This document shows positions 11,855-44,741 of a DNA stretch of 64,000 nucleotides, in pieces. Numbering within the stretch: position 1 is the stretch's first letter; every line of letters begins with the position of its first letter. The position numbers and the translations under genes were made by a program. The DNA is from an uncultured Candidatus Saccharibacteria bacterium (lineage in GTDB: Bacteria > Patescibacteriota > Minisyncoccia > Minisyncoccales > GBS-2): NCBI GenBank assembly GCA_964593405.1, contig CAZQIO010000001.1, forward strand, positions 2,263 to 66,262. The letters run 5' to 3'. Under the pieces are notes generated by a model. It ran no database searches, was not told the DNA's origin, and saw only the letters and a list, made by a program, of their open reading frames with translations.

Positions 11855-11856
11855 AA

Positions 11857-27184: not shown

Positions 27185-28276
27185 ATGTACCATCTTTTCA
27201 GGAAATTGATAGACATAAATTTATTATATTTAAGCAAATATTCTCGCTTTTTTTTAAATTTTATTCAACCAAGGCCGATTGAGGCCAGCTTTAAGGTAAC
27301 TGAGAGGTGCAACAGCCGGTGCATTACCTGTAATGTCTGGAAAAATGTTCCCAAGAATGAATTGACTACTCAAGAAATAGAAAATGTTTTTTATCAGTTA
27401 AGAGAGATAGGAATAAAATATATCGGTTTCACTGGTGGAGAATGTTTGTTAAGGGATGACATTGGTGAATTGATTAAAAAAGCCAAAAAAATATTAAGAG
27501 CAAAAGTTTATATAATCACAAATGGTATATTGTTAGAAGAAAAAGCAAAGATTCTTTTGGAACAGGGAGTAGATTATATCAGCGTTTCCCTTGATGGCAT
27601 AGGAAAAACTGATGAAAAAATAAGAGGAGTCCCCGGTCATTACGAGAAGGTCATAAGAGGAATTAAACGATTAAGAAAATTGAGTTCGGGGAAATCGCCT
27701 CCCATTAATATAGGCACCACCCTTGTCAAACTTAACCTTCACGAAATTCCAAAATTGATTGAGGTTTGTAAAAAATTAAATGTAACTTGGTCGTATAATT
27801 TATTAGATACAAGCCTTTATTTCTTTAAAGGTATTGATACTTCCCAACTATTGGTCAACGATGAGAATTTAGTGGATAAAACGATCGATTATTTATACGA
27901 AATAAAAAAGAAGGACCCCGAAATAATTAACATGAATTTTAAGAGTTTGGAATTTGCCAGAGAGTATCTTAAAAATAAAAAGCCCAATTTCCATTGCACT
28001 ATGGGGTATCTGAGAGTTTTGATAGATTCAAGTTTAAATGTCTATTCAGGTTGTTGGGCTCTTCCTCCGATGGGAAACTTAAGAAAAGAAAATTTAAAAG
28101 ATATTATTAGATCGCCAAAATATAAACAAAGGACAAAACAAATGTTTGATTTAAACTGCCCAAGATGTACTTGCGGTTATGCATTCTCTCTGGCGATTAA
28201 CTTTTTACCTTCAAGTTTGATTGAAGCAATCAAAAATTTTAAGGGGTATAAAACATATCTAAAAATGATAGTGTAG
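27185..28276 (+). CDS. radical SAM protein with C-terminal SPASM/twitch-like Cys cluster
   Basis: CNSRCITCN (CxxxCxxC), GGEC, and a C-terminal ...CTMGY...GCW...CPRCTCGY. Confidence 0.7.
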   Translation: MYHLFRKLIDINLLYLSKYSRFFLNFIQPRPIEASFKVTERCNSRCITCNVWKNVPKNELTTQEIENVFYQLREIGIKYIGFTGGECLLRDDIGELIKKAKKILRAKVYIITNGILLEEKAKILLEQGVDYISVSLDGIGKTDEKIRGVPGHYEKVIRGIKRLRKLSSGKSPPINIGTTLVKLNLHEIPKLIEVCKKLNVTWSYNLLDTSLYFFKGIDTSQLLVNDENLVDKTIDYLYEIKKKDPEIINMNFKSLEFAREYLKNKKPNFHCTMGYLRVLIDSSLNVYSGCWALPPMGNLRKENLKDIIRSPKYKQRTKQMFDLNCPRCTCGYAFSLAINFLPSSLIEAIKNFKGYKTYLKMIV

Positions 28277-28323
28277 TATTGCAAAGCGGATAATCGGTTA
28301 GACCAAGAAACTTAAAAGGGAAT

Positions 28324-28872
28324 ATGATTTTCACTCAACTAGATCTTAAATTACTATTGTTACTTCAGAATTTTCATAACAAGTTTTTGGATTATTTGAG
28401 TTTAGGAATTAGCTGGATTACCGAGGGAGGTTTTATTTGGTTTTTTATTTGTGGGTTAATTTTTCTTTTTGAGAAAAAAGAGAAAAAAAGGAAAATTTTT
28501 TTAATTTTATCAGTGCTTTTGCTGAGTGATTGGCTGGTTAATATTCCTTTCAAGATGATTCTTTTTTGTCGAGAAAGGCCATATAAGGTTATTCCAGGAA
28601 TTAGAGTGATTGGCAAAATCTGGGAAAATTGTTCTTTTCCCTCCGGTCATTTGGCCGTTTCAACGGCCGCTGTTTTGATTATTGGTTATTTGTTCCATTT
28701 AAGAAAAGGCTGGTTTATTTTTTCTTCAATTAGCTTTCTCTTTCTTTTGTCTTTTGCCAGGATGTATGTTGGCATGCATTATCTGAGCGATATTTTAGGA
28801 GGAATAGTTATTGGAGTTATTTCCGCGCTTATCATTATCTATTTTGATAAGCAGATTAACTGGAAATTCTGA
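28324..28872 (+). CDS. PAP2-family membrane phosphatase
   Basis: CRERPY, PSGH, and ARMYVGMHYLSDILGG (R-x5-H-x3-D) motifs. Multiple TM helices. Confidence 0.7.
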   Translation: MIFTQLDLKLLLLLQNFHNKFLDYLSLGISWITEGGFIWFFICGLIFLFEKKEKKRKIFLILSVLLLSDWLVNIPFKMILFCRERPYKVIPGIRVIGKIWENCSFPSGHLAVSTAAVLIIGYLFHLRKGWFIFSSISFLFLLSFARMYVGMHYLSDILGGIVIGVISALIIIYFDKQINWKF

Positions 28873-28924: not shown

Positions 28925-28970
28925 TTATAATGGATTAATGCGCTTTACCGTTTCAACAAAAGGATTCGTT
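28925..28970 (+). repeat. remnant copy B of the yjbQ promoter-proximal 5' end
   Basis: TATAATggatTAATGCGCTTTACCGTTTCAACAAAAGGATT matches the first ~30 nt of yjbQ (41041-41070), then diverges. Confidence 0.55.
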
Positions 28971-29154
28971 GTGAAAACACCAGAATACTCGTTAAAATAA
29001 GACTTCCTCCAAGGAGCGAAATGACCAAGAAAAAGCTGGCAGTTAAGGCTTAATTTTTAATGGGATGTCATCCATATTTTTTGGCATCATGGACAATATC
29101 CCAGCAAATGGCTTAAATTTGAGCTGGAAGTAATGATATAACTGGGTTTTAAGT

Positions 29155-30103
29155 TTGGAAATCACTTCAATCGCAGAACAGTTATTATTCACCGGCGTCA
29201 GGATAGAAAGTATAGTGGTCGAAAATAAACGAAAAATCGGGACAGGTTTTATTCTTGATTACAGAATGGAGGGCAAAAGCTATCCGTTCATCATAACAGC
29301 AAAGCATATTATTAGCGGAGCCGAAGAAGGAGTATTAACTTTTATTAAAGGCAAAAGAAACATACCGCTTCTTGGAGAGGGTTATCAGTTAAAAATTAAG
29401 GATTTTGAGAAAATTTAGTTTAAGCATCCAAGTGAAAACATTGATGTAGCAGTATCACCTTTTGTTCCTATTCTTAACCATATTGCAAATCAAGAAATCC
29501 AAGTATTTTTTAAATCAATACCTAGCGATTTGATTCCCAAAAATGCACAACTAAAGGAATTTGACGCGATAGAGGATATTCTCTTTATTAGGTTATCCCA
29601 TCGGACTATGGGATGAGAAAAATCTTCTTCTTATTGTAAGAAGAGGTATTACCGCAACTCTAGTATTTGTAAACTTTAATGGTGAAAGGCAATTTTTAAT
29701 CGACGCTTCTATCTTTCCGGGTTCTAGTGGAAGCCCTGTTTTTATTTATGACAGAGGAATTTATTGGAACAAAAAGTCAGAAGCTACGGTTGGTGGTCAC
29801 AGAATCTTCCTTTTAGGAATTCTTTCAGCTGTTTTTCGGATGCCCGATAGAGGAGAATTGATCTTTCCAAGCGAACGAATACACACCCTTACAGAGCATG
29901 GCGAAGCAGTGTTTTTTACGAATGAAAAAGTGAGGATTAAAGTAAATCAACTAGCAGACTTAGGAATAGTTTTTAAATCAGAGATAATAATTGAAACTAT
30001 AAACAAGTTTCTGAAAGGAAACGTAATGCATGCCTATGGCGCTCCACAATATTTCGCATACATAATCGATAAACACTTACATAATAGCCTCCTAATCCTC
30101 TGA
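29155..30103 (+). pseudogene. trypsin-like (S1/Trypsin_2) serine protease, disrupted by an in-frame TAG (29416-18) and a frameshift near 29590
   Basis: Catalytic triad segments lie in three frames or pieces: ITAKHII (His), NIDVAVS (Asp), and IDASIFPGSSGSPVF (Ser, GxSGxP). Confidence 0.6.
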
Positions 30104-30273
30104 ATACAAATCATGGAACCATGAATAATATCTCACCGAGTGAATTAAGTTTGAACTGGAAGTAAAAGTGTGATGTTATAGCAGCATCTTTTAGCATAGA
30201 AAGAGATGATTAAATAGCTAACTAAAAAATTATTCTTCTTTAACTGTCTCCTTAACATAAGCGATTTTGGGTT

Positions 30274-30471
30274 TTATTGTTTCTTTTCTTTCTTCTTTAC
30301 AAGCCAGTAGACTATTCCAGCGATTATCCAGCATATTATCGTGCTTATTGGCGTGGAGGAACAGTGAGCGTAGTGGCCTAGCAGGCAGGATCTACTTGCG
30401 GGGGCGGGGATTAATGTTGAAACCCCTAAAACAATAAATATTACTATTAGAACCCAGTGATACCCCTTCAA
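30274..30471 (-). CDS. small two-TM membrane protein (hypothetical)
   Basis: 65-aa ORF with two hydrophobic helices and a Lys-rich tail. Confidence 0.25.
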   Translation of the reverse strand: MKGYHWVLIVIFIVLGVSTLIPAPASRSCLLGHYAHCSSTPISTIICWIIAGIVYWLVKKKEKKQ

Positions 30472-30866
30472 TAAATTTTCCTCCTATATATCGGATGTTA
30501 TTATTTTAACTCAAGATGTTTATAAAATTTTGGATGATAACAAGGATTAAATCTGCATTTCTCACACCTTTTAATGGAGTTGGTATAATGCCGCGGAATG
30601 CTCAAAGGTTATTGATAAGATTCTAGAGATGTTGATGGATGAAACGCTACCCTCAAAGAGAAAATAGAGAGATGGAATAATCTTTCAGAGAAGTTTGCCG
30701 AGTGCATAGGTGGGCGTTTAAAGGAGTTAGTAAAGGAAATGAAGATAACTGAATTAGAGGTGCAGAAGCTAGCTCAGGAAATTTTAGAAGAAGCAACCAT
30801 ATACGCTAAACATCATCGTGAAAATTAATAGTTTATCAATTTTAAGAATAAAAGCCTGAATAAAAT

Positions 30867-31795
30867 TCAATTTAAAACTTTAAGCCCAGCCTTATCATAG
30901 ATTTCCTTCAGTTTCTCTGGGCTGAAATCCGTATAATGTCTTGCAAGTACGCTTCTTGGAACCCTTCCGCAGAAGGCATCAACATATCTGTCCGGGACGC
31001 CTAGTTTTCCCATTTCGCAGGCAAACCATTCCCTCAATATTTGAGGCGTAATGCTTAAACCAGTTTTCATTCTGGCATCGAGGAATATCCTGTGCTTTTC
31101 GTTCGTCTTCATCGGGAAGAGTTTATCGCTCTTTTTTAGCCTAATCTTTAGTCATTCCTTTAAAGGTTTTTCAGCCTCTTCGTTGTAGAAGGTTATGTAG
31201 CTTCTTTTTGTTCTGGAATTATGTCGGGGAAATATCGTTCTCTTTTCAAAATCGATGTCGCTTAGCTTCAACTTTAGGGCTTCGCTTCTCCTTAATCCAG
31301 AGGAAGCTAATAAAAGAAAGATCGCCTTTTCTCTTAAATCCTTCAAGGCTTGGTAAAATCTTTGAAGCTCTTCTTTTGAAGGGACCTTTTTAATCGTTGG
31401 GCTTGGATTTGGGAATTTGAAGCTTGGACCAAGTCTGGCCTTCCTAAGAAATCTCTGAAAAACCTCTACAAAGCCTTCAACATGTTGGCATAGCTATACG
31501 GATTTCCATCCCTCAAAGTTAAAAGGAAACTCCTAATATCTCCAACGCTCGGGAAGTCAATGCCATTTTTCTCTATCCAAGCCAAAAACTTCCGCACATT
31601 GTAGATGTGTTGCCCCACCGTCTGTTTCGAAAGCTGAAGGTTAACCAAGCAAAATTCTGCGAATTTCCTCAGCACTTCCTGGAAATCAGATATTCTCTCA
31701 AAGTTATTCTCCTCATTCTCCATTCTCCCTTCAAATTGTCCCAATTTGAATTCTAAGCCATCTTTGAGCCTGTCACGCTGAGGACCCGGGTTCAA
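30867..31795 (-). pseudogene. tyrosine recombinase/integrase (XerC/D-phage integrase family), one frameshift (~31470-31495) and one in-frame TGA (31152-54)
   Basis: N-terminal SAM-like domain (ISDFQEVLRKFAEFCLVNLQLSKQTVGQHIYNVRKFLAW). Catalytic box I LLLASSGLRRSEALKLKLSDID. Box II ITPQILREWFA...RSVLARHYTD with the Tyr. Pieces 2 and 3 are in the same frame across the TGA. Confidence 0.75.
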
Positions 31796-31813
31796 ATCCC
31801 GGCGGCCACACCA
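31786..31813 (+). other. orphan tRNA 3' fragment (T arm + acceptor 3' strand + CCA): candidate att core
   Basis: CCGGG-TTCAAAT-CCCGG, then CGGCCAC, then A-CCA. No complementary 5' acceptor strand (GTGGCCG) lies upstream. Abuts the integrase N-terminus. Confidence 0.55.
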
Positions 31814-32061
31814 TTCATCACTGTTTTTTTGTCTCCTTTTTTCCGTAAAGAGGTCTTAATTGTTTTATTGCCATTTTCAAAGCATTTTCACAAGTCCTTG
31901 AAATATTCAAGCCCAATTCCCTTGCCTCTTTAACAACATCCTCGTCGATATAGATGGTTACACTTATTTGCTTACCCAATTTTATTTGCCTCCATTTGGA
32001 ATTATGTGGAAATCAAATTTAAGGATTTCGCATGCAAAGCCATGCGCCCTGAGGATGGAGA

Positions 32062-32859
32062 ATGGCGATGGCGAGAATAGTGAGAATAAAGTTGTATAAG
32101 AATTCTCTAGGAAATTTTTATGAAGAGGAGAAAGAGATGTCAGAGGCTGTTGCGCCGAGAAGGTTTGTCATTCCGAGGCTTTTGGCTTGGGTTATGGTTT
32201 TTGCTGGAATAGGCATATTCGTTATCGGTATTCCATTTCTTATGTATAGCCTTTTCATGTTTAGTTTTGTTAGGCGCTTCGACCCTACCGGCATTATCCT
32301 GATGATCGTTGGTGCAATCGTCTTTTACGTTGGATACAAAAATACGGGCTTTATACTGACTAAGGAAGAGATAGTAGATAGGTGGAGCGTTTTAGTTGAG
32401 AACGGCAAGGGAAAGGCAAACGAGATCTTCGATGATACCGAAGGCTTCATTAGGAAAAGCCAAGCTCCAAGGATTGCTGTCGAAAGGAGGGAAATTGTCC
32501 CTACGATAACAAAGGACATCCTGGGCGTGAGGAGAAGGTTTTTGGTCGTTACTAAACTTGAGAATCCAAAGCTTTTGAATTACAAGACCTTCATTTGCGC
32601 TAGGGATTATGGAAACAACCTCGATGTTTCGTGGTATTTAACGTATAAAATGGGCTTTTTCGAAGCTTTATTGAACCTATTATTTCTCAGAGGAAGATTT
32701 GTTCCAAAACTTGACTTGTTCGACGAGCAGGATTTAAGAGCTTATATGACAAACGTCCATCACTGCCTTTTAAAAGCCGTTGAATCTTTAATGAAGAGCT
32801 TGGGGCAAGACTTTTCTAAGGTTGACAGAAAATCTATAGGTTTCTTGGGCGTTAGTTGA
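32062..32859 (+). CDS. membrane protein (two N-terminal TM helices + ~180-aa soluble domain), hypothetical
   Basis: Hydrophobic segments LLAWVMVFAGIGIFVIGIPFLMYSLFMF and GIILMIVGAIVFYVGY. 4-nt overlap with the downstream ATPase. Confidence 0.4.
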   Translation: MAMARIVRIKLYKNSLGNFYEEEKEMSEAVAPRRFVIPRLLAWVMVFAGIGIFVIGIPFLMYSLFMFSFVRRFDPTGIILMIVGAIVFYVGYKNTGFILTKEEIVDRWSVLVENGKGKANEIFDDTEGFIRKSQAPRIAVERREIVPTITKDILGVRRRFLVVTKLENPKLLNYKTFICARDYGNNLDVSWYLTYKMGFFEALLNLLFLRGRFVPKLDLFDEQDLRAYMTNVHHCLLKAVESLMKSLGQDFSKVDRKSIGFLGVS

Positions 32860-34142
32860 TGGGAATTCTTGATAGGCTGCTTAGGCGGAAAAAGAAGGAA
32901 AAAGAGGAGGTTGAAGTAGAGGAGAAAGTCGAAGAAGCTCCAGTCGAAGTTGACGAGGGAAATGTTGTAAACATTGGCTGGTATTGGTCTGAGCAAAAGC
33001 AAGAGTGGCAGATGGCAAAGATTAAAGAGGAGGATAGGAAAGTTCACTTTTACGTTGTCGGTGCCTCTAGAACTGGAAAGTCAAAGTTCCTTGAGTTTTT
33101 GATTAGACAAGACATTGAAAAGGGAAATGGCTTCGGAGTAATCGACCCTCACAGGGATTTGATTGATGATATTAAGGCTTATCTAACATTAGCCCTGCCG
33201 AAAGAGGAGTTGGAAGAGAGAGTTGTAGTAATAGACCCAACAGATGAGAGGTATACCGTCGCCTTCAACCCTCTTGAGAAGATCAAGAAAATGTTATCTG
33301 CCGAGATAGCAGCCGAGCTCGTCGAAGCCTTCAAGAAGATTTGGGATTATGGGAGCGCCATCGAAACTTACGGTTGGGGTGCTAGGATGGAGGATTTGCT
33401 TAGGAACTCGCAAATAGCCCTAATAGAGGCTGGACTCACGCTATGCGACCTACCACGTTTTCTAATAGAGGATGACTTTAGGGAGAACGTCTTGGAGAGG
33501 GTTGAGCATCCAATAGCAAAGAGGTATTTCCAGAGGTTTAATGCCTTAGCCCCAAAAACGAGAGAGGAATGGATGGAATCTACACTGAACAAAGTCAATG
33601 CTTTTTTATCAGATGATAGGATCAGGGAGATATTCTCATTCCAAAAATCTTCTTTCAATTTCAGGGAGATAATGGATAATAAGAAGATTTTGTTAATTAA
33701 GCTTGATAAGGGAAGGCTGAAAGAAAATGCCGACTTGCTGGGTGCGCTATTGATGACGAAGATCAGGATGGCTGCGTTCTCGAGGTCAAACGTTCTAAAA
33801 GAGAAAAGAGTCCCATTCTACCTTTACATTGACGAGTTTCAAAACTTTGCAACCAAAACATTCATTGAAACTCTGAGCGAGGCTAGAAAATATGGCTTAT
33901 CACTTATAATGGCCCATCAGAATCTTTCTCAGTTGCCGAAGGAATTGCAAGATTCAATTTTAACTAACTGCGGAATCCAATGTTACTTCAAGGTCTGTAG
34001 AAGAGATGCTGAAATATTAGCTAAAGAAGCTTTTGAGACGAGTGGTGTTGAGGTAAAAGCAGTAAAACTTTCGAGGGAGTACTCTGATTACGATTGGTTC
34101 ACATATTCAGAGGATTGGGAAAAGTACATTCAAGAGCTATAG
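32856..34142 (+). CDS. FtsK/HerA/TraG(VirD4)-superfamily P-loop ATPase (DUF87-like), no TM segment
   Basis: Walker A VVGASRTGKS. Walker B LYIDEFQNF. C-terminal RKYGLSLIMAHQNLSQLP signature shared by T4 coupling proteins and HerA. Confidence 0.6.
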   Translation: MMGILDRLLRRKKKEKEEVEVEEKVEEAPVEVDEGNVVNIGWYWSEQKQEWQMAKIKEEDRKVHFYVVGASRTGKSKFLEFLIRQDIEKGNGFGVIDPHRDLIDDIKAYLTLALPKEELEERVVVIDPTDERYTVAFNPLEKIKKMLSAEIAAELVEAFKKIWDYGSAIETYGWGARMEDLLRNSQIALIEAGLTLCDLPRFLIEDDFRENVLERVEHPIAKRYFQRFNALAPKTREEWMESTLNKVNAFLSDDRIREIFSFQKSSFNFREIMDNKKILLIKLDKGRLKENADLLGALLMTKIRMAAFSRSNVLKEKRVPFYLYIDEFQNFATKTFIETLSEARKYGLSLIMAHQNLSQLPKELQDSILTNCGIQCYFKVCRRDAEILAKEAFETSGVEVKAVKLSREYSDYDWFTYSEDWEKYIQEL

Positions 34143-34194
34143 CAGTTGCCAAACAGATGTTTTTGGGCAAAACACAAAATTGAAGGTGGTGTAA

Positions 34195-35103
34195 TTCCAC
34201 TGTACACTGTGGGAAATTAGGCAAGCTTATGAGGAGTTCGGTGTAGAGAAAGAGGTTCAGGATAAAATTCTGAGTGAAGTTGTCTTCAGTAAAAGGTATC
34301 TTTTAGAGAGAAAGCCCAAGGAAGTTGAAAAGAAGGTTAAGGAAAAGTCTAGTGAGGAAGAGAAGCTCACAGCCTTAGAGGAAATTATTGCAACATTAAC
34401 ACCTTTTGAGAAGGCGATTCTATGGGCTATAGGTGTTGGAAACTACAATTCAGCAGACATATACGAAGAGGCGAATAAGAAACTCAAAGAATGGGGTTGC
34501 TCAACCAGAAAATACTCAGAGTTTAAGAAGAAGTTTTATGAGTTTGCCAAACTACCTAAAGAGGGAGGTAAAGGATTAATAGAGTTTAGAAAGCTTGGCA
34601 GGAGCTTTTGCTATTGGCTAAGTAAGTGGGGAGAAATTGCATTTGCTGAAAAGTTTGGAATACCTTCTGATAGGGCGATAAACGAGCTTGGAGGTGGAAG
34701 AAAGCCATCAAAAACCGTAGCCTTGGAAGTCATAAAGGAGTGGCTTGAACCAAATGGATACAAGGTTAAGGCTGAGGAGGAAATAAAAACCGATTTGACC
34801 GAGAGAGGCAGAGGCTACACTGATTGGGTTGCCGAGAAAAATGGTGAAGTTTTGAGGATTGAGATTGAGCATAGAAGCCAAAAAGAGCAAGTGGAGAGGA
34901 ATATAAGGAAGAACTTAGAGTACTCAGATACACTCTACATCATAGCGAGCGATGAAACGGCGAAAAGAAAAGTTATTCAAGTTGCTTTGAGAACATTATT
35001 TAGGCTGAGGAAAGAAAAACCCGATGAAAAATGTGTGGTGAAGGTAGCTGACATTGAAGAACTGAAAAGGAATAGTTGGAATAAGTGGTTCGAGATAAAA
35101 TGA
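34195..35103 (+). CDS. winged-helix + PD-(D/E)xK nuclease-like protein; open frame of ~300 codons with no ATG/GTG/TTG before 34723
   Basis: Frame opens after the TAA at 34192-94. C-terminal GYTDWVAEKNGEVLRIEIEHRS resembles a PD-(D/E)xK core. The track only reports the TTG at 34723. Start lost, or non-canonical. Confidence 0.4.
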   Translation, partial: FHCTLWEIRQAYEEFGVEKEVQDKILSEVVFSKRYLLERKPKEVEKKVKEKSSEEEKLTALEEIIATLTPFEKAILWAIGVGNYNSADIYEEANKKLKEWGCSTRKYSEFKKKFYEFAKLPKEGGKGLIEFRKLGRSFCYWLSKWGEIAFAEKFGIPSDRAINELGGGRKPSKTVALEVIKEWLEPNGYKVKAEEEIKTDLTERGRGYTDWVAEKNGEVLRIEIEHRSQKEQVERNIRKNLEYSDTLYIIASDETAKRKVIQVALRTLFRLRKEKPDEKCVVKVADIEELKRNSWNKWFEIK

Positions 35104-35152
35104 AGGAAAACCTTATATGAGGAAAATCCACCTTTTCTATAAGTGAGAAAAA

Positions 35153-35518
35153 TTGGAGCGTTCAACTAGGAAATATAAGGCAACAAAGTTACCCGTTGAA
35201 GTATTTGATGAAGCCGAGTTAGTGAAAGCTAAGCTAATTATGAATAGGGAGGCTTTAAAGAAGCTTCCTTCAGAGGGTGCGAACCCAGCTAAATGTCCCC
35301 TTGGCGGTAATGATTTGAGGGTTGCCGAAGTTAAAGTGGCGGTAAAAATGGTCTCGTGTCAACGTTGCGGTTACAAACAACCGTCCCTAGACGTATCCAG
35401 CATTGGAAACGATCCTGCGGCAATCGCTGGAGCGTTAGGTCTGGGAGTTCTAGCGGGTCTCGGTATAGCTGCATTGCTATATTTAATATTTAGCGGTGAA
35501 AAGAATGAGCGAAGTTAG
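35153..35518 (+). CDS. small Zn-ribbon protein with C-terminal TM anchor (hypothetical)
   Basis: CPLGG...CQRCGY (two CxxC-like pairs), then AAIAGALGLGVLAGLGIAALLYLIF. The 35153 start is TTG; the first ATG is at 35240. Confidence 0.35.
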   Translation: MERSTRKYKATKLPVEVFDEAELVKAKLIMNREALKKLPSEGANPAKCPLGGNDLRVAEVKVAVKMVSCQRCGYKQPSLDVSSIGNDPAAIAGALGLGVLAGLGIAALLYLIFSGEKNERS

Positions 35519-35895
35519 GATAAAAGTCCAGGCAGATTTGAATATCATTAAAGAATTACTGATAAGAGAGGGTTTTACGATCCGGGCATTTTGCAGACTT
35601 GGAAAGAAGGCCAGGTATTTGGATTAGCTAAGCCGTTAAATTATCTAATCGAAGTTCACGTTAGGGGTTTTGCGGATAATACTTTAGATGCCGAAATAGA
35701 GTTATCACGTGAATATCTAGAACATCCCTACGACGGGAAACCTTACTACGGTTTTCTAATCGAGAACTCTAACTAAGTGGAAACCCATGCTTTTTGTACT
35801 ATGTATCATTTGTGGAATATGTGGATTTTTTGCAGTTTTAGAAAGATTCGGCTCGAAGGATAATTCATTGACAAAATTAGAAGAGGAATGATACA

Positions 35896-37179
35896 ATGGA
35901 TAGAATGTTTGTGAGATTTTTATCAGAAATAAAGGAACCAAAAGCTTCAGAACTTGGAGGAAAAGGCTATTCATTAGCTGTTTTAATGAATAACGGATTT
36001 AACGTCCCGAAAGGCTTTGTCATAGTTTTAGATGCGTTCTTTGAGCATCTTAAAAAGAACGAATTGATGGAGAAAGTTAGAGAACTAGTAGCTAAAATCA
36101 ACGAGGGGAATTTTCAAAAAAAAAGCAGAGAAATTAAAGAGTTAATATTGAGCGGAGCAATACCTGAGGAAATTGCCTTAGAGGTAAAAAATGTCTTAAA
36201 TAAATTAAATGTTCAGTATGTTTCTGTTAGGTCATCTGCTGTTAGCGAGGATAGCTTAAAAGCTTCATCTGCGGGAATGCATGATACATTCTTGAATGTA
36301 AAATCAGAACCAAAACAGGTTTTAGAAAATGTGAAGAAGTGCTGGGCATCTTTATTCAATGAAAGAGCGATAATATACAGAATTAAGAAAAAGCTGCCTC
36401 ATTTAGAGGGAATGGCGGTTGTAGTTCAAGAAATGATACCAGCTGAGGTTTCTGGGGTCGCCTTTACTGCCCACCCAACGAACAAAAAGTTTTTACTTAT
36501 TGAGGCTTGCTATGGAATTGGTGATATGGTCGTGGGTGGTAAGGTGGAGCCAGATGATTATGTGGTGAATAGAGAAACTTTAGAAATAATAGAAAGAAAG
36601 ATTGGCAGGAAGGATAGAATGAGCGTTATTGAAAATGGAAAAATTAAAGTTATTGATGTCGAAAAGAAACTTGCTGAAAAACAGGTTTTATCTGATAATG
36701 AGATAAAAGAAATCGCTGAAACTTGCCTAAAAGTCGAAAAAACATTTAAATATCCTCAAGATATTGAGTGGTGTATCTCCAAAGATTTTATATGGATTCT
36801 ACAATCACGAACAATAACCGCGACATCATTGCTTATTGGAGAAAAAACAAAAATAAAACCGATTTTGAGCGGATTAGGAGCAAGCCCCGGTATAGTTAAA
36901 GGGAAAGTAAAAATTATTTTAAGTCCGAGGGAAGTTAATAAAATGAATGATGGTGAAATATTGGTTACTGTAATGACTAATCCACTATATGTTACTGCAA
37001 TACAAAAAGCCAAAGGAATAGTTACAGACGTTGGTGGCATACTTTCTCATGCAGCTATTGTAGCAAGGGAGCTTGGAATTCCTTGTGTAGTTGGAACTGA
37101 AAAAGCGACAAAAATACTGAAAGATAATATGGAGGTTATTGTAAATGGTACAGAGGGTAAAGTTTATGCACCAGACTGA
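35896..37179 (+). CDS. PEP-utilizing-enzyme family phosphotransferase (PPDK-N ATP-grasp + phosphohistidine 'mobile' domain, no PEP/pyruvate TIM barrel)
   Basis: ELGGKGYSLAVLMNNGFNVPKGFVI (PpsA N-terminus) and C-terminal GGILSHAAIVARELGIPCVVG with the swivel His. Confidence 0.7.
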   Translation: MDRMFVRFLSEIKEPKASELGGKGYSLAVLMNNGFNVPKGFVIVLDAFFEHLKKNELMEKVRELVAKINEGNFQKKSREIKELILSGAIPEEIALEVKNVLNKLNVQYVSVRSSAVSEDSLKASSAGMHDTFLNVKSEPKQVLENVKKCWASLFNERAIIYRIKKKLPHLEGMAVVVQEMIPAEVSGVAFTAHPTNKKFLLIEACYGIGDMVVGGKVEPDDYVVNRETLEIIERKIGRKDRMSVIENGKIKVIDVEKKLAEKQVLSDNEIKEIAETCLKVEKTFKYPQDIEWCISKDFIWILQSRTITATSLLIGEKTKIKPILSGLGASPGIVKGKVKIILSPREVNKMNDGEILVTVMTNPLYVTAIQKAKGIVTDVGGILSHAAIVARELGIPCVVGTEKATKILKDNMEVIVNGTEGKVYAPD

Positions 37180-38260
37180 TGATTTAATAACTGAATTATT
37201 CAGAGTTACAGGAGAGGCAATCTACGATACAGATATGCAACACGGGGATGGTAGGGATTATTGGCCCTTTCATCCAGTATTTTTAGATTCTCTTGTTGCT
37301 CCAATAGTGTTTAAAGAAATTTTAAGGATTATTGAAACATTAGAAAACAAAGGCTACACCCTAACAGACATTGCAGAAACAGTATACAGTCCAACTAAAA
37401 TAGCTAATTACCAATATTTGTGGCCAGAAAAAACAATCAAATCTTTAACCTATGACGAAAAATACAAGCTCGCAAAATATTTCGTTGAGTTACTAACGAT
37501 TTTGAGAAATGGTGAACCTTTTTGTGAGAAAGGAAGAAACTTGGTATGGACCAGAAAGAACTTAATCCAAAATATAGAAAAATATAAGAAAGATTTTGTA
37601 AGTGCTAAACAAAACCCTGAAATGGCTCAACTTTTGTCGAAGCTAGAAGGAATTCTAGTTTCTTATGCGGAAGCGCTGTACTATTACATGATTGACTTAT
37701 CACGTATGATGCATGGTCCTTATTCACTTGAAAATGGATCTACTGTTTTTGTAAAGGAATATCTTCACTTAAAGGCTGGAGAACTTTGGGATGTGGTTTC
37801 AGATTTCCCTTTTGACCATTTTAAAGAGATCGGAATTTATCAAGGCATACAAATAACTACTTTCTTTATGGGACATACACACTCAAATCCACCTTTCCCA
37901 AAAGCAATAGATAAATTCGTTATAATCGTAGATGATAAAGTAATAAAAAATATGGACGAGCTGAGAAATTTATATGAAAAGGTAAAAGAAGTAACAGAAA
38001 GAGCAGCTCGATGTATAGCAGAAAAGTCTGGCGATGAAGCTTTTCTTCTTAAGAAGGGAATTGATATGTTTTTCTATCCATTAAAACCTCTCTACAAGGA
38101 AATAGGAGAGAACTGGAAAGATATACTTCCACAAGCATATAAGTTTGCATATAATGTGAAAGATAAAATAAAAGTTCCTGGACCCTGGGGTGATTGGAAT
38201 AAAGAGAAAGCAGTAAGTCACCTTCTAAAACTAATGGATTTTCGGAGGAAAGCAAGATGA
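37166..38260 (+). CDS. hypothetical protein, translationally coupled to the phosphotransferase (ATGcaccagacTGA overlap)
   Basis: 365-aa ORF starting MHQTDDL. No motif recognised. Confidence 0.4.
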   Translation: MHQTDDLITELFRVTGEAIYDTDMQHGDGRDYWPFHPVFLDSLVAPIVFKEILRIIETLENKGYTLTDIAETVYSPTKIANYQYLWPEKTIKSLTYDEKYKLAKYFVELLTILRNGEPFCEKGRNLVWTRKNLIQNIEKYKKDFVSAKQNPEMAQLLSKLEGILVSYAEALYYYMIDLSRMMHGPYSLENGSTVFVKEYLHLKAGELWDVVSDFPFDHFKEIGIYQGIQITTFFMGHTHSNPPFPKAIDKFVIIVDDKVIKNMDELRNLYEKVKEVTERAARCIAEKSGDEAFLLKKGIDMFFYPLKPLYKEIGENWKDILPQAYKFAYNVKDKIKVPGPWGDWNKEKAVSHLLKLMDFRRKAR

Positions 38261-38484
38261 TAACAGAGTTCTGCAGTTACAAGCAAACTCTAATAAATAT
38301 GATGAAGATTATCCGTAAACCTATAGAATCTTTTGCTATTGATACAAACACCACTTACCTTTACTTTGAAAAAACGCTTTACCTCCAATAGGTCCAACCA
38401 ATTCTAGAGAAAACTATATGATGCCTTTTCTTATTTTAGTAACCAACCCCCTGTTCTCATGTCTTAAAGCATGGTGGATGTACG

Positions 38485-39183
38485 ATGTGCGGGTATTCAA
38501 ACCTAGCTACCTTTAAAGATAATATTACCGGAGATGTGGTATACGAACAGTTTAGAAGGGGGTTTGAGATTATCAAAAAGATTCCTCACCATGAAATGGT
38601 TGCTATTGGAACCGCTGGCTCATTTTTAGACCCACATGAAGTTCCATACGAAATCCAAGCAAAAATAATAAAAGAACTTAACTCTTCAGGTGATATATAC
38701 TACATAAACATTGAAATAAGAGCAGAATATGTGACTAAAGAATCTCTTGAAAATTTGGTAGAAGTAGTCGATGATCCACATAAGTTAGCTATTGGAATCG
38801 GTTTAGAAAGTTCAAATGAGCTTATAAGAGAGTTATGTGTCAATAAATGTCTACCTATCGCCTCTTTCATCCGAGCTAAAAGATTGCCTGAAGAATTGCG
38901 AAAAAATGTACTTATTGCGACTCCAAGATTGCCTAAGCCCTTAGAACTTAAAGTAAGTGACGGTGCTCAGACGGCAATAGAATTATTAAATGAATATAAA
39001 GGCACACTAGACTATAATTATATCGATGCTATAGATGCCCTTTCAAGCTCTGATAAGAGAAAATGGTATGAGAATTTGGAAAGAGAAATGAACAACTCTG
39101 ATTCAATAGAAAAACCAATATCTACGAACTTTAGCCGTTGGCTGGAGGCGTGGAAAAATGAGCATGGAAGAATATTTCAATAA
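38485..39183 (+). CDS. hypothetical protein; in-frame upstream extension carries a C-x8-C-x2-C cluster
   Basis: MCGYSNLATF... Upstream in frame, PTPCSHVLKHGGCT runs back to a TAA at 38440. Possibly a truncated metallo or radical-SAM-like enzyme. Confidence 0.3.
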   Translation: MCGYSNLATFKDNITGDVVYEQFRRGFEIIKKIPHHEMVAIGTAGSFLDPHEVPYEIQAKIIKELNSSGDIYYINIEIRAEYVTKESLENLVEVVDDPHKLAIGIGLESSNELIRELCVNKCLPIASFIRAKRLPEELRKNVLIATPRLPKPLELKVSDGAQTAIELLNEYKGTLDYNYIDAIDALSSSDKRKWYENLEREMNNSDSIEKPISTNFSRWLEAWKNEHGRIFQ

Positions 39184-40286
39184 AAATAAAGAAAAACTTA
39201 AAGAGGTTTACGAGCTATTCCGGAATACAGATTACGGCAGGGAATTAAATCTACCCCCAGAATTTAATGATTACAACACTTTTAAAACTTTACCCCTCAT
39301 AGATCCACGAAAAGTAGATTTTAAGCGACTATTTGTTCCAGGCGATAATTTGTGGTCTTTTATATCTAGTGGAGTGTCGGGACATAGGAAGATGGTAATG
39401 AGCGATATAGGAACTATTACTAAGTATCCAGAAGAAATGGATGAAATCTTAAGAACTAATACATCTGTATTTCTCCACAGTAAGAGGAGAAAAGGTGAAA
39501 GGAGATGTACTCTTCATAATAGAATATCCCCTGATGGCAGAATGGATTTGTTATCAATTAGAAAAGGCTATAGAAGCAGGAAAAATATTTCCCGGGAATA
39601 TTAGGAAAAAGAAAGTATATTTCGAATTAAGTGGAGAACCTGTTACTGAGGAACAAGTCTGTAACATTGTAAAAAGATTAGAGAAAATATTTCAAACAGA
39701 AGTAGAATATTCTATTACATACGGCTCTACTGAGATTGGGCTTATAGGAACGTATATTCCAACAATTCATGGTTCCAAAATTAAATATGAAGTAATTCCA
39801 TCGCTTTTTGTAGAAATAGTCGATGGGGAAATAATCATTACTCCTTATAGGAAACAAGGGACAATATTATTTAGATACAAAACCGGAGACAAGGGCAAAC
39901 TATTTTTTGAAAATGGTAAACCATTCTTGAATGTAATTGGGAAATCTGAAAGTGAGGGGATTATGTATGTTGCAGGTGTTCAAGTATGCATCCCAGAGCT
40001 AGTGGCAGAAATAGAAAAAATAGCAAATTTTCCAATCGGAATAAAGGTCATCAAAAAGAAGGATCGGCCGAAAGGAGTATGCGAACTTGATATTAAAATT
40101 CATATACCTCGGCGTGATGCTTTAAGTAATAGTTTAAAAAATGCCATAACAGAAAAAACTAAACAGTTCATTACAGATTCTGCTGTTTTGTCGGTGGAAA
40201 ATCATTTAGGAATAGTGAAAATAAATATTCATTATTCTTCTGAACCTATAAAAAAAAGGTTCATTATTGAAAACTTAAAGGCATAA
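39158..40286 (+). pseudogene. PaaK/F390-synthetase-like adenylate-forming enzyme, frameshifted near 39495-39604
   Basis: ANL motifs SSGVSGHRKMV (A3, P-loop-like) in the first piece and YGSTEIG (A5) in the second. Confidence 0.5.
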
Positions 40287-40449
40287 ATCAAGATAATGGA
40301 TGCATAATTCCTTATCAATGAACTCATTGCAAAACTCTTAGCGAACGTTTAAACTGTTAGCTTAAGCAATGAGGTTTCGCAATTGGCTCAATAATAAAAA
40401 CTTAGAATACAGAAGCTATTCTAGAAGAACGAAAAATATTAAACCATTG

Positions 40450-40535
40450 CTTTGTGGCTTAATTATGTACCTTCATCAACTTTCACATCAAATCCTATCA
40501 TCAACCTATGTGGGGTTGAGAGTTAAGCCACAAAG
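40450..40535. repeat. 13-bp perfect inverted repeat CTTTGTGGCTTAA ... TTAAGCCACAAAG with 60-nt spacer
   Basis: Arms at 40450-40462 and 40523-40535, inside the 750-bp noncoding right end of the island. The track ORF at 40369..40572 that spans it is probably spurious. Confidence 0.45.
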
Positions 40536-41040
40536 CTTAATATTCCACTTTTCCAAATATTGCCTCTCTTAACTTTCCAATTTAATACCCTCAAATATTG
40601 ATGCGTCAATGTTAAGCTATCATATACTTTCTTGCCTCTGAGGGTATGGAGCGATTTCTAGTGAAGCTTGGGTTTTATTTTAATACCCCTATCTTATTAT
40701 TCGGTAAACTGGTATAGCTAAAATCTCATCACTTTCAAGCCTTTCAACGTCTATTGCCTTGAAAGCATAGAGCTTCTTTCCAACTTCAAAGAATAGTAGA
40801 TCCCAATAATAGCCTTTCCTAATCCATATTACTGGTCTCTGGCTCAAAATGGCATTTTTCATTTTTAAAATTGCTCTACAATCAGCGTATTTCGTTCTAT
40901 ATTTTGAGTCCTCTTGCTACTATACACTACTCTTACAGTGAAGTATCTTCCCTAAAGCATACTATCTGAAGGAAAGAAATAGTTGGCTTTAATCGCTGAA
41001 GGCTTTTTATTTTTGGGAAAATAAATTATACTGAAATAAT

Positions 41041-41451
41041 ATGCGCTTTACTGTTTCAACAAAAGGTTTTTGCGACATAATTGATATTACTTCAAGGGTT
41101 CAAGAGGCGGTCAAAAAAGCAGGGGTTAAAGATGGTTTTTGTATTGTCTCTTGCCCAGGATCTACGATTGGAATTACAACGATTGAGAATGAACCAGAAC
41201 TTTTGAAAGATTTCAAAGAACTTTTGGAAAAATTGATCCCCTCTGACAAAGAGTACCGCCATGACAAAGTTTGGGGAGAAACCAACGGGTTTTCTCATTT
41301 AAGGTCTGCTTTGATTAAACCTTTTTTAACAGTGCCCATCGAAAATGGAAAATTAATTTTGGGCACCTGGCAGAATATTGTTTTTATTGATTTTGATTCA
41401 AGGCCAAGGGAAAGAGAAATTTTGGTTAAAGTTTTTGGACAAAGGTCGTAA
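41041..41451 (+). CDS. yjbQ: YjbQ/UPF0047-family protein (integration-target gene; intact copy)
   Basis: MRFTVSTKGFCDIIDITSRV...GTWQNIVFIDFD family signature. Confidence 0.7.
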   Translation: MRFTVSTKGFCDIIDITSRVQEAVKKAGVKDGFCIVSCPGSTIGITTIENEPELLKDFKELLEKLIPSDKEYRHDKVWGETNGFSHLRSALIKPFLTVPIENGKLILGTWQNIVFIDFDSRPREREILVKVFGQRS

Positions 41452-42376: not shown

Positions 42377-43026
42377 TGAGAATTTTCAAACCCTTTAGCA
42401 TCAATCCAGTAATTAAGTATCTGATTTTGGCAGATTTGATTTTTTGGTCTGGTTGGGGACTTTTGGCCCCGATCTTTTCTGTTTTTTTAGTTGAGAAAAT
42501 AGAGGGTGGAAATTTGGCCTTAGCAGGATTGGCCAGCGGAATTTATTGGGTTTTAAAGTCAATTTTGCGCTTGCCAATTGGTCTTTTTTTAGATTCAAGA
42601 AAAGGAGAGGAAGATGATTTTTGGTTTTTGTTTTTTGGCCTAATTTTTTCTTCTTTGGTCCCCTTTGGTTATTTGATGGCAAAGAACTTTTTTCACGTTT
42701 TTCTTTTGCAGATTTTGGAGGCTGTTGGCATGGCAATGGCCCTTTCTGGTTGGACAGTAATTTTTACCAGACATATTGACCAGGGAAAAGAAGCTACCGA
42801 ATGGGCTTTGGATGCAACCTCGGTTGGAATTGGAATTGGTCTTTGTGGAATTTTGGGTGGAATGATAGCCCAGGTTTTCGGTTACAAAGTTGTCTTTTTC
42901 CTCTTTGGAGTTTGTGGCATTTTTTCTGCCCTTTTGCTCTTGAGAATTTTGAAAATAATTTCTCCAAGATCAGCTAAAAAAGGACTGGTTTTCTCTTTGA
43001 GGGAAATTTTCTTTCAGGAAAAATGA
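42376..43026 (+). CDS. polytopic membrane protein (MFS-like half)
   Basis: About six predicted TM helices. Start at the ATG MRIFKPF. Confidence 0.35.
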   Translation: MRIFKPFSINPVIKYLILADLIFWSGWGLLAPIFSVFLVEKIEGGNLALAGLASGIYWVLKSILRLPIGLFLDSRKGEEDDFWFLFFGLIFSSLVPFGYLMAKNFFHVFLLQILEAVGMAMALSGWTVIFTRHIDQGKEATEWALDATSVGIGIGLCGILGGMIAQVFGYKVVFFLFGVCGIFSALLLLRILKIISPRSAKKGLVFSLREIFFQEK

Positions 43027-44741
43027 AAAACCAAGAGATTGCCAAAATTTTTTATGAAATTGCCTATTTTTTGGAAATGGAAGGGGTTAAATTCAAACCA
43101 TTTGCCTATGAAAAGGCTGCAATTACCCTGGAAGGATTAGAAAAAGACATTGAGGAAATTTACAAAAAAGGAGGGTTTGAGGCTTTAAAGAAAATTCCAG
43201 GTATTGGAGAAAGCATTGCCAAAAAAATAGAAGAATATTTAAAAACAGGAAAAATCCAATATTACGAAGATTACAAAAAAAAGTATCCGATAAATTTGGA
43301 AGAATTGATGGGAATTGAAGGAATTGGGCCAAAGAGAATTAAGGTTTTGTATGAGAAATTGGGAATTAAAAATTTAAAAGAACTGGAAGAGGCGGCAAAA
43401 TCTCACAAAATTGCCCCTCTTTTTGGTTTTGGAGAAAAAACAGAAAAAAACATTTTGGAGGCGATTGAGTTTGCAAAGAGGGCCAAGGGAAGGTTTTTGT
43501 TGGGGGATATTTTGCCAAGGGTAAGAGAAGTTTTTGAGAAATTGAAAAGTTTAAAAGAAGTAGAAAGAATCGATGTTGTAGGCTCAATAAGAAGAATGAA
43601 AGAGACAATTGGTGATGTTGATTTTTTAGTCATTTCAAAAAATCCAAAGCCGATTATGGATTTTTTTGTTTCTTTGCCAGGAGTGATTAAGGTTTGGGGG
43701 AAAGGGACGACAAAATCTTCAGTGAGAATGAAAGAGGGTTTTGATATGGACATTAGAGTTTTACCAAAAAGTTCCTATGGGGCAGCATTGCAGTATTTCA
43801 CTGGATCTAAAGAACACAACATTGCTTTGAGGAAAATTGCCATAGAAAAAGGCCTGAAACTTTCTGAATATGGACTTTTTAAGGGTCAAAAAATGATTGC
43901 TGGAGAGTCAGAGGAAGAAATTTATGAAAAATTGGGAATGGATTGGATTGCCCCAGAATTGAGAGAAAACAGAGGAGAAATAGAGGCAGCTTTGAAAGGG
44001 AAATTACCAAAAATAATTGACTACAAAGATATAAAAGGAGATTTACATTGCCATTCAAAATGGGATGGCGGAGCAAACACAATTGAAGAGATTGCAAAAC
44101 AAGCAATCAAAATGGGTTATGAATATGTTGGAATTGCAGATCATACAAAGTTTTTGAAGATTGAACATGGCTTAGATGAAAAGAAGTTGAGAGAGAGAAA
44201 CAAAGAAATTGATGCTTTAAACAAAAAATTTGCCGGAAAAATCAAAATTTTAAAAGGTTGCGAAGCAAACATTTTGCCAGATGGCTCAATCGACATTTCA
44301 GACGATTGTTTGAAAGAGCAAGATTTTGTCATTGCCGGAGTCCATTCAAGGTTTAAAATGTCAAAAGAAGAGATGACAGAGAGAATAATTCGGGCAATGA
44401 AAAATCCGAATGTAGATATAATTTCCCATCCAACAGGAAGGCTAATTCAAAAAAGGGATGAATACGAAATTGACTTTGATAAAATTTTGAGGGTTGCAAA
44501 AGAAACTGGAACGATTTTAGAAATCAATTCCTATCCTGAAAGGTTGGATTTGAACGACGTTAACATCAAAAGAGCAAAAGAAGCTGGAGTGAAAATGATC
44601 ATTAACACCGACGCCCATCATATAGACCAAATGAGATTCATTGAATACGGAATTGGCCAAGCAAGGCGAGGGTGGGCTGAAAAAGAAGACATTGTCAATT
44701 GCTGGCCACTAGAGAAAATGTTAAAATTTTTGAAAAAGTAA
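43023..44741 (+). CDS. polX: DNA polymerase X family with C-terminal PHP phosphoesterase domain
   Basis: Pol-beta-like helix-hairpin-helix and nucleotidyltransferase region ([17 protein letters not shown]) plus PHP motifs ([11 protein letters not shown]...IADHT...NTDAHH). Confidence 0.8.

Follow-up and report, generated by a model that had tools for sequence, protein, structure and literature searches.

Phosphoenolpyruvate (PEP)-utilizing dikinases are the textbook case of domain-swivel catalysis, and to our knowledge only a handful of acceptor modules have been described for them: the pyruvate triosephosphate isomerase (TIM) barrel, the rifampicin (RIF)-binding-type domain, and glucan-binding modules. 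Rifampicin phosphotransferase (RPH), PigC/RedH, and flavonoid phosphate synthetase combine an ATP-grasp with a swivel domain and act on small-molecule acceptors, their order being grasp, substrate domain, and C-terminal swivel. Two-component dikinases also function, as experimentally characterised for HpeHI, CreHI, and phenylphosphate synthase PpsAB, in which an ATP-grasp domain and a swivel His phosphorylate a substrate other than pyruvate, a transient activation that is followed by further enzymes and a phosphatase (PMC12167813). Here, we analysed a 64,000-nt stretch of contig CAZQIO010000001.1, assigned to an uncultured Candidatus Saccharibacteria bacterium (hereafter the window), in which four overlapping genes on one strand, A to D, lie within a mobile island (Table 1). 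Our reading, to which we give a probability of about 0.7, is that what remains here is a decaying copy of a conserved, mobile cassette of six genes, the intact core of which is a two-subunit dikinase of the PEP synthase (PpsA) type with protein B replacing the TIM barrel. The locus would resemble HpeHI, CreHI, and PpsAB as a split dikinase of the same superfamily. However, the split in those systems separates the grasp from a RIF-binding-like domain joined to the swivel, whereas here it separates grasp plus swivel from B (or, in related loci, swivel, B, and grasp from one another), and B is unrelated to the RIF-binding-like domain.

Profile searches bore out the domain content that had been assigned to A from its letters and open reading frames (ORFs) in an earlier, sequence-only reading. 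In Pfam, A matched PPDK_N (PF01326; residues 19-311, 5.1e-89) and PEP-utilizers (PF00391; residues 351-421, 5e-26), and the PEP-utilizers_C TIM barrel (PF02896) was not found in A with Pfam or NCBIfam profiles. Alignment to the PpsA model ran unbroken over positions 4-462 of 798, and the best sequence match in the PDB was the PpsA-type entry 8a8e (1.5e-84). Like PpsA and pyruvate phosphate dikinase (PPDK), A therefore has an N-terminal ATP-grasp followed directly by the swivel. It differs from them in scoring below the PpsA cut-offs (406 bits against 598 for PRK06464; 396 against 740 for TIGR01418) and in one diagnostic residue. The segment GGILSHAAIVARELGIPCVVG is present in A, and the catalytic swivel His was read directly within GGILSHAAIVARE, which carries the GGxxxHAAI motif; this His is kept in all 32 of the B-linked swivel domains compared. 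The regulatory Thr of PpsA, which stands two residues before the catalytic His in the context GGxT[S/C]H (PMC12167813), is Leu in A (GGILSH), and the position is occupied by Leu or Ile in 28 of the 32.

B is a real gene and, as the sequence-only reading had it, one of no known family, although the ATG/TGA overlap placed between A and B in that reading belongs elsewhere. The conserved start of B is the ATG at 37145 (homologues share an MVQ/MAQ N-terminus), which gives a product of 371 aa and an overlap of 35 nt with A; gene callers also use the ATG at 37166 (364 aa); the ATGA start/stop overlap joins the stop of B to the original start of C (38257-38260). B had no match in Pfam, NCBIfam, or PADLOC, and sequence and profile searches of the PDB returned zero matches. 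When 40 B sequences were compared with Pfam at E<=5, neither a consistent family nor any PEP-utilizers_C signal emerged, and 3 of the 40 gave a weak MerR/HTH_19-like signal. Close homologues formed 52 clusters at 41-100% identity, the named ones coming from Micrarchaeota, Aenigmatarchaeota, and unclassified archaea, and a profile search at E<=1e-3 extended the superfamily to 344 clusters (50% identity). The alignment of 40 sequences has 45 invariant columns, and the core conserved among 135 superfamily members comprises W40-P41, P83, N132, (E188)-H190-G191-P192-Y193, W215, Y232, and W324. An AlphaFold2 model built from the 40 sequences was confident (predicted local distance difference test, pLDDT, 92.8; predicted template modelling score, pTM, 0.91): its N-terminal part (11-180) is all-alpha, residues 187-262 form a sheet of six strands, and a helical bundle (270-370) makes up the C-terminus. 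As modelled, the fold is not a (beta/alpha)8 barrel. Foldseek comparison of the model with the PDB and BFVD gave no credible match (best E 0.35), and B showed neither sequence nor Foldseek similarity to the RIF-binding domain, which was represented in the searched PDB by 5HV1 and 5FBS.

To place B among its neighbours, 50 loci were fetched and reference proteins were placed on them by tblastn; the non-redundant set comprises 35 loci from DPANN archaea and bacteria of the Candidate Phyla Radiation (CPR). A swivel-domain gene (~110 aa) adjoins or overlaps B in nearly all 35, and the ATP-grasp is either fused ahead of the swivel or encoded by its own gene just 3' of B. Natural fusions join PPDK_N, swivel, and B in single chains of 770-771 aa, or swivel and B in chains of 434-505 aa, and one fusion of B with a haloacid dehalogenase (HAD) phosphatase was found. 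The 770-aa relatives thus share the three-module order of PpsA and PPDK, with the difference that the third module is the B domain, in the window a separate, overlapping gene, and not the TIM barrel (PF02896). Across loci, the swivel part is 65-83% identical compared with 38-60% for the grasp part, as would be expected if the swivel docks on B. Two swivel-plus-B pairs accompany a single grasp gene in several loci (L019 105-2907, L031/L049, L033 8523-11050, and L041 27-2906; B' is 25-28% identical to B), an arrangement that fits B as a specificity module and suggests one kinase head charging two acceptor modules.

The adjacency to the swivel, the fusions, the conservation, and a fold other than a TIM barrel together argue for B as the acceptor-substrate module of a dikinase with PpsA architecture. 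We infer that the phosphoryl group passes from ATP through His~P to an acceptor on B, which is the best-supported functional reading of the pair. ATP would be bound by the ATP-grasp domain of A and the phosphoryl group moved to the swivel His in GGILSH; the swivel domain would then deliver it to protein B, which, in place of the pyruvate/PEP TIM barrel, would bind a different acceptor. The earlier proposal that A is a phosphotransfer enzyme with an acceptor other than pyruvate is supported in this analysis by the missing TIM barrel and by the presence of B, and the substrate of A and B is probably new. The B family (~344 clusters, with a confident, unmatched fold and no annotation) would add new chemistry to the dikinase superfamily, and its distribution centres on CPR bacteria and DPANN archaea, which are among the least understood organisms.

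The same evidence bears on whether A is simply the N-terminal fragment of a disrupted full-length ppsA. Although the best family matches of A are genuine PEP synthases, we consider this hardly credible, because the DNA right after A is filled by the conserved B, in which 40 members give no PEP-utilizers_C signal at E<=5 and the modelled fold is not a TIM barrel, because the A+B arrangement recurs in dozens of loci and in single-chain fusions, and because the regulatory Thr of PpsA is replaced in most B-linked swivel domains. The sequence-only reading had named the remainder of a broken ppsA in another frame downstream as the thing to look for; no TIM-barrel remnant was seen there, and the candidate was rejected.

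That reading had also likened A to rifampicin phosphotransferases and raised the possibility of a resistance determinant, in which A and B would form a kinase that inactivates a xenobiotic or antibiotic. RPH-type enzymes do share the superfamily of A, which scores 316 bits on the RPH model NF041857, and the genes lie on a mobile element. However, the score is far under the cut-off of 999 and comes from two separate stretches (PigC models likewise aligned in two separated stretches, far under their cut-offs). The domain order is that of PpsA, with the swivel directly after the grasp and the acceptor module in the separate protein B, and not that of RPH, PigC/RedH, or flavonoid phosphate synthetase, to whose substrate domains B bears no similarity; for RPH this holds in both sequence and Foldseek comparison. 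No resistance match was obtained in PADLOC or NCBIfam. Conservation of B across phyla is 41-82%, and the gene is found on CPR and DPANN chromosomes as well, those of tiny symbionts among them; both points argue for an endogenous substrate. The cassette also links B to radical S-adenosylmethionine (SAM) and adenylating enzymes that resistance kinases do not need. We therefore regard resistance as quite improbable, and the likeness to RPH architecture does not hold.

Unlike A and B, the two genes that follow are damaged. Lesions were called by alignment to orthologues in L005, a 25-kb Joint Genome Institute (JGI) contig with an intact copy. The Cys motif C-x8-C-x2-C noted earlier in the upstream extension of the third gene is present as PCSHVLKHGGCTMCG and is an iron-sulfur cluster motif, but C can be named more specifically than as a Cys-motif protein, namely as a RaSEA/Elp3-like radical-SAM paralogue. 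Its frame is lost (-1) at a T-run near 38370, after which TAG, TGA, TAG, and TAA stops follow, and is restored (+1) at a C-run near 38451; an in-frame deletion near 38878 then removes 80 residues of the radical-SAM barrel (L005 positions 208-287). The remaining ORF, from 38485, begins between the second and third cluster Cys, leaving two of the three outside, so that frameshifts and stops cut the cluster motif off from any start codon. In the window, C matches TIGR01210 over model positions 27-185 only (102.6 bits, cut-off 212). The intact L005 protein has a Radical_SAM match, scores 166.2 bits on TIGR01210 (RaSEA) against the same cut-off, and has TIGR01212 (MnmL/YtqA, 2.6e-8) as its second NCBIfam match; the cluster motif and the radical-SAM domain are intact in C orthologues. 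TIGR01210 is the top match of C and its orthologues, and the cluster motif is common to both. However, even intact orthologues fall under the cut-off and TIGR01212 comes next, by which we assign C, from its sequence, as a paralogue within the tRNA-modifying Elp3/RaSEA-like group. In further contrast to RaSEA, no ArcS or tRNA-guanine transglycosylase (TGT) partner was found by ORF clustering of the 35 loci.

D is disrupted, as described earlier, and probably PaaK-like: both motifs reported for it, SSGVSGHRKMV and YGSTEIG, are present, and the lesion is an out-of-frame deletion of ~31 codons that splits the gene into 39158-39604 and 39495-40286. The deleted part includes a block that is invariant in the family, SYYETHDxNHKRMYPQGIFxEY. 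The motifs of the ANL superfamily, (T/S)SGxSGxxK, YGSxEIG, and YKTGD (core motifs A3, A5, and A7), are recognisable in the alignment and the window ORFs, in likeness to PaaK and coenzyme F390 synthetase, and profile matches of intact D are weak (a DVU_1553-family AMP-dependent ligase, DVU1553_fam_AMP, 2e-6; by profile, phenylacetate-CoA ligase PDB 9s3l, 1e-4). D is nevertheless very distant from PaaK and F390 synthetase, with an invariant SYYETHDxNHKRMYPQGIF block of its own, and neither the window nor the L005 copy matched Pfam AMP-binding. The lesions in C and D recur identically in a second assembly (L004). Judged by sequence, C and D are pseudogenes in the window, only A and B are intact, and this copy is largely non-functional, such that the phosphorylation step of A and B is at most what could still operate.

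L005 carries the same backbone genes as the island together with an intact cassette in the order A-B-C-D-E-F (A 404 aa, C 390 aa, D 413 aa, E 403 aa, F 684 aa), and its B is 81% identical to that of the window. No trace of E or F was detected in the window by tblastn with the reference proteins. The earlier suggestion of a four-gene pathway therefore stands insofar as the genes belong to a conserved operon carried as island cargo, but the pathway is not intact, since two of its genes, C and D, have become pseudogenes and two more, E and F, have been deleted. A comparison with other genomes had been recommended in the sequence-only reading, and the same gene order indeed recurs in many independent contigs, which argues that the cluster is not a chance arrangement. 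Neighbours were sought by all-against-all clustering of ORFs from the 35 non-redundant loci: the recurrent genes were C (12 loci), D (9), E (6), F (4), and that of a kinase-type protein (3), with the arginine decarboxylase PvlArgDC, ABC-transporter ORFs, and one unannotated cluster in 3 loci each; no other conserved neighbour or precursor peptide of at least 70 aa was found in this set. Gene orders included A-B-C-D-E-F, C-D-A-B-E-F, swivel-C-B-grasp, A-C-B, and swivel-B-D-grasp, the last in a CPR chromosomal context beside transfer-messenger RNA (tmRNA), SmpB, and RecO (L046). From this variation and recurrence, the dikinase appears as the anchor and C and D as recurrent partners. Decay is not confined to the window: on a contig of a Methanophagales metagenome-assembled genome (MAG), A is frameshifted, B is truncated, and C and F are reduced to small fragments (L009 8749-10825), and swivel and B stand alone, with no grasp gene nearby, in Micrarchaeota (L001/L007, 9697-11101). 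Together, these copies imply that the module is accessory and has been lost repeatedly. Where the cassette is intact, the dikinase would act with C (radical-SAM), D (adenylating), the 400-aa protein E, and the large sixth protein F.

E belongs to no Pfam or NCBIfam family, and its profile found no credible match in the PDB; it contains repeated (D/N)GGFPP motifs, which may be akin to prenyltransferase or terpene-cyclase repeats. The C-terminus of L005 F is a phosphoribosyltransferase (PRTase) domain, PRTase-CE (Pfam 2e-32). F also scores 1e-26 on the retron III-A PRTase models of PADLOC and has a weak match to the anti-phage PRTase model DS32 of NCBIfam. Sixth genes of this type (~690 aa) occur at L005 9371-11425, L017 12293-14401, and L037 7432-9480, and are replaced at L011 7796-9697, L012 9156-11141, and L015 6545-8500 by a kinase type (633-661 aa) with a TCAD9/APH-like C-terminus; BLASTP revealed no N-terminal domain shared between the two types. 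E was observed to co-vary with the type of the sixth protein (24-41% identity). The retron III-A likeness consists in three sixth genes (L005, L017, L037) ending in PRTase-CE, whereas the reverse transcriptase and non-coding RNA context of retrons is lacking and PRTase-CE is absent from the window. We found no literature on this gene combination or on PRTase-CE, and an Rfam scan of the island and nine related loci returned no riboswitch that could point to the ligand, its matches being a tRNA/tmRNA-like att fragment and a tRNA.

These partners raise the possibility that the intact cassette serves in conflict, as a defence or counter-defence system, or modifies nucleic acids or nucleotides. The dikinase, C, and D would then make or alter a molecule linked to a nucleobase, a nucleotide, or tRNA, with the sixth position held by an interchangeable effector; such a role, which is compatible with the dikinase reading, we put forward only tentatively. 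The family relatives of C are solely radical-SAM enzymes that modify tRNA bases, the sixth position alternates between PRTase-CE and unrelated kinase proteins, and the cassette travels on an integrative element with a VirD4-like ATPase. A protein with HD-CE and NB-ARC/STAND domains neighbours L037, genes for HEPN, AbiEii, and transposase proteins lie near other loci, and decay that recurs, as in the window, L009, and L001, is a typical trait of accessory conflict genes. PRTase-like proteins are, moreover, reportedly proven retron effectors. The relatives of C, the swapping of the sixth gene, the mobile carriage, and the STAND, HEPN, and Abi neighbours are what favour a conflict role or one linked to nucleotides or nucleic acids. 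However, no PADLOC model matched A to D in the window or B to E in L005 (for L005 A, the matches to PDC-S06 at 0.0016 and LeoA at 0.0032 were weak and sub-threshold), and CPR housekeeping genes also surround the swivel-B-grasp core by itself or accompanied by D (L045, L046). The hint of nucleic-acid binding in B is limited to the weak MerR/HTH-like signal in 3 of 40 sequences, the 35 loci offered no TGT/ArcS partner, and "defence" neighbours are common throughout these genomes. Beside the intact cassette of L037, the immune-receptor-like STAND protein is encoded on the minus strand at 10068-13652 (1194 aa; HD-CE, NB-ARC/STAND, and tetratricopeptide repeats).

A different role, in which the cassette would make or tailor a small molecule or peptide for secretion (natural product or ribosomally synthesized and post-translationally modified peptide, RiPP) with phosphorylation as a transient activation, would suit the combination of a radical-SAM enzyme, an adenylating enzyme, and a kinase, a set often met in tailoring pathways. 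In L017, the cassette is preceded by two ABC exporter genes, and the fusion of B to a HAD phosphatase hints that phosphorylation is later reversed, as it is in the Hpe pathway (PMC12167813). The (D/N)GGFPP repeats of E may also fit such a role. However, the 35 loci contain no conserved small ORF or other conserved neighbour, families of RiPPs, nonribosomal peptide synthetases, and polyketide synthases were not found, the C family is not of the SPASM or RiPP type of radical-SAM enzymes, and ABC genes are near the cassette in just one cassette locus; tailoring is thus an unlikely role. Directly 3' of the cassette, a pyruvoyl-dependent arginine decarboxylase gene was observed in three loci (L012 11199-11699, L015 8883-9401, and L017 14507-15004), which may reflect either synteny common to the hosts or a functional connection such as agmatine supply. 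Whatever the role, the B-domain dikinase and the genes linked to it, for the RaSEA paralogue, the adenylating enzyme, and the exchangeable conflict-type proteins, make a concrete set that lends itself to testing.

The island that carries the cassette extends over ~28967-41040 (12.1 kb) between 29-nt direct repeats that are identical at 27 of 29 positions and spaced 12103 nt apart. Besides a membrane protein, a coupling ATPase, and A to D, the insert carries two small proteins, and the G+C content of its left part is 0.40, compared with ~0.34 outside. Each fragment of the broken tyrosine integrase retains a Pfam match of its own (Phage_integr_3 5e-6, Phage_integrase 1e-8, Phage_int_SAM_1 2e-4). 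The C-terminal integrase fragment (30867-31112, minus strand) scores 26.9 bits, against a cut-off of 27, on the "Archaeal phage integrase" model PF16795. Abutting the start of the integrase is a tRNA-like fragment. In comparison with L005 181-545, it corresponds to the 3' half of an intact tRNA-Glu(CTC) that precedes the L005 element, and the next 250 nt are ~75% identical; from this alignment, the fragment seems to be the att-type region of the element itself. The outer bounds, in contrast, are repeats of the 5' end of yjbQ, and the island may accordingly be a composite or secondarily inserted element. The coupling ATPase matches T4SS-DNA_transf (6e-12), TraG-D_C (2e-9), and TrwB_AAD_bind (2.5e-9) in Pfam. 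Elsewhere, this ATPase was seen as two ORFs in L005 (1246-2938) and as a protein of >778 aa with DUF8128 in L047 (16212-17224), so that erosion seems to have reached the backbone of the element too.

Table 1. Coordinates in the window of the cassette genes and other features of the island.
Feature	Position	Strand	Description
Left direct repeat (attL-like)	28938..28966	+	Copy of first 29 nt of yjbQ/UPF0047
Broken tyrosine integrase	30867..31795	-	Three ORFs: 81, 64, 109 aa
tRNA/tmRNA-like 3' fragment	31777..31813	+	37 nt; T-arm, acceptor stem, CCA; Rfam tmRNA partial, 20 bits, E 9e-5
Membrane protein, backbone	32062..32859	+	265 aa; 41-54% identity in L005; no Pfam family
VirD4/TraG-like coupling ATPase, backbone	32856..34142	+	428 aa; 77% identical to L005 copy
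126-aa protein, backbone	34723..35103	+	75% identical to C-terminal part of L005 177/228-aa ORF just 5' of A
Gene A	35896..37179	+	427 aa; PPDK_N ATP-grasp and phospho-His swivel; intact
Gene B	37145..38260	+	371 aa; new family; intact; predicted acceptor-substrate module
Gene C pseudogene	38257..39183	+	RaSEA-like (TIGR01210-related) radical-SAM enzyme
Gene D pseudogene	39158..40286	+	Probable distant PaaK-like (ANL) adenylating enzyme
Right direct repeat (attR-like)	41041..41069	+	5' end of intact yjbQ/UPF0047 gene (41041-41451; Pfam UPF0047 1e-37)

The arginyl-tRNA synthetase of the window is closest to proteins of Nealsonbacteria, Parcubacteria, and Patescibacteria, and flanking genes encode bL20, IF3, and SmpB; the host is therefore a CPR bacterium, of the Parcubacteria type. 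The closest relatives of the element, however, are on contigs assigned to DPANN archaea: the B protein of the window shares 74% identity with its counterpart on a 117-kb Micrarchaeota contig and 71% with that on an Aenigmatarchaeota contig, compared with only 47-56% for B in bacterial chromosomal contexts. Given these identities and an integrase fragment at the threshold of the archaeal model, sequence comparison suggests that the element has been exchanged between DPANN archaea and CPR bacteria. The window would then present an element common to archaeal and CPR contigs (70-80% protein identity) that has been caught decaying. A broader proposal, which we regard as possible though doubtful, is that B-domain dikinases constitute a new enzyme class with a new acceptor fold and a new substrate, and that, joined by C, D, and the interchangeable effector, they make up a new mobile system for conflict or nucleotide modification, exchanged between DPANN and CPR on an archaeal-type integrative element.

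Several points weigh against the reading of a mobile B-domain dikinase cassette in decay. Swivel and B occur without an ATP-grasp gene within 8-10 kb in L001/L007, L003/L008, and L045, and the role of B could be regulatory, or that of a phospho-acceptor protein, instead of that of a catalytic acceptor domain. The archaeal assignment of several short contigs is from MAG binning, and the two assemblies that display the C and D lesions may come from the same reads. The region is, with these points in mind, a lead for both enzymology and CPR/DPANN biology. Outside the island, a SPASM-type radical-SAM gene and a PAP2 phosphatase gene were observed to the left (27185-28872), and a family-X DNA polymerase with a PHP domain to the right (43023-44741); as far as seen, these are ordinary host genes unrelated to the cassette.

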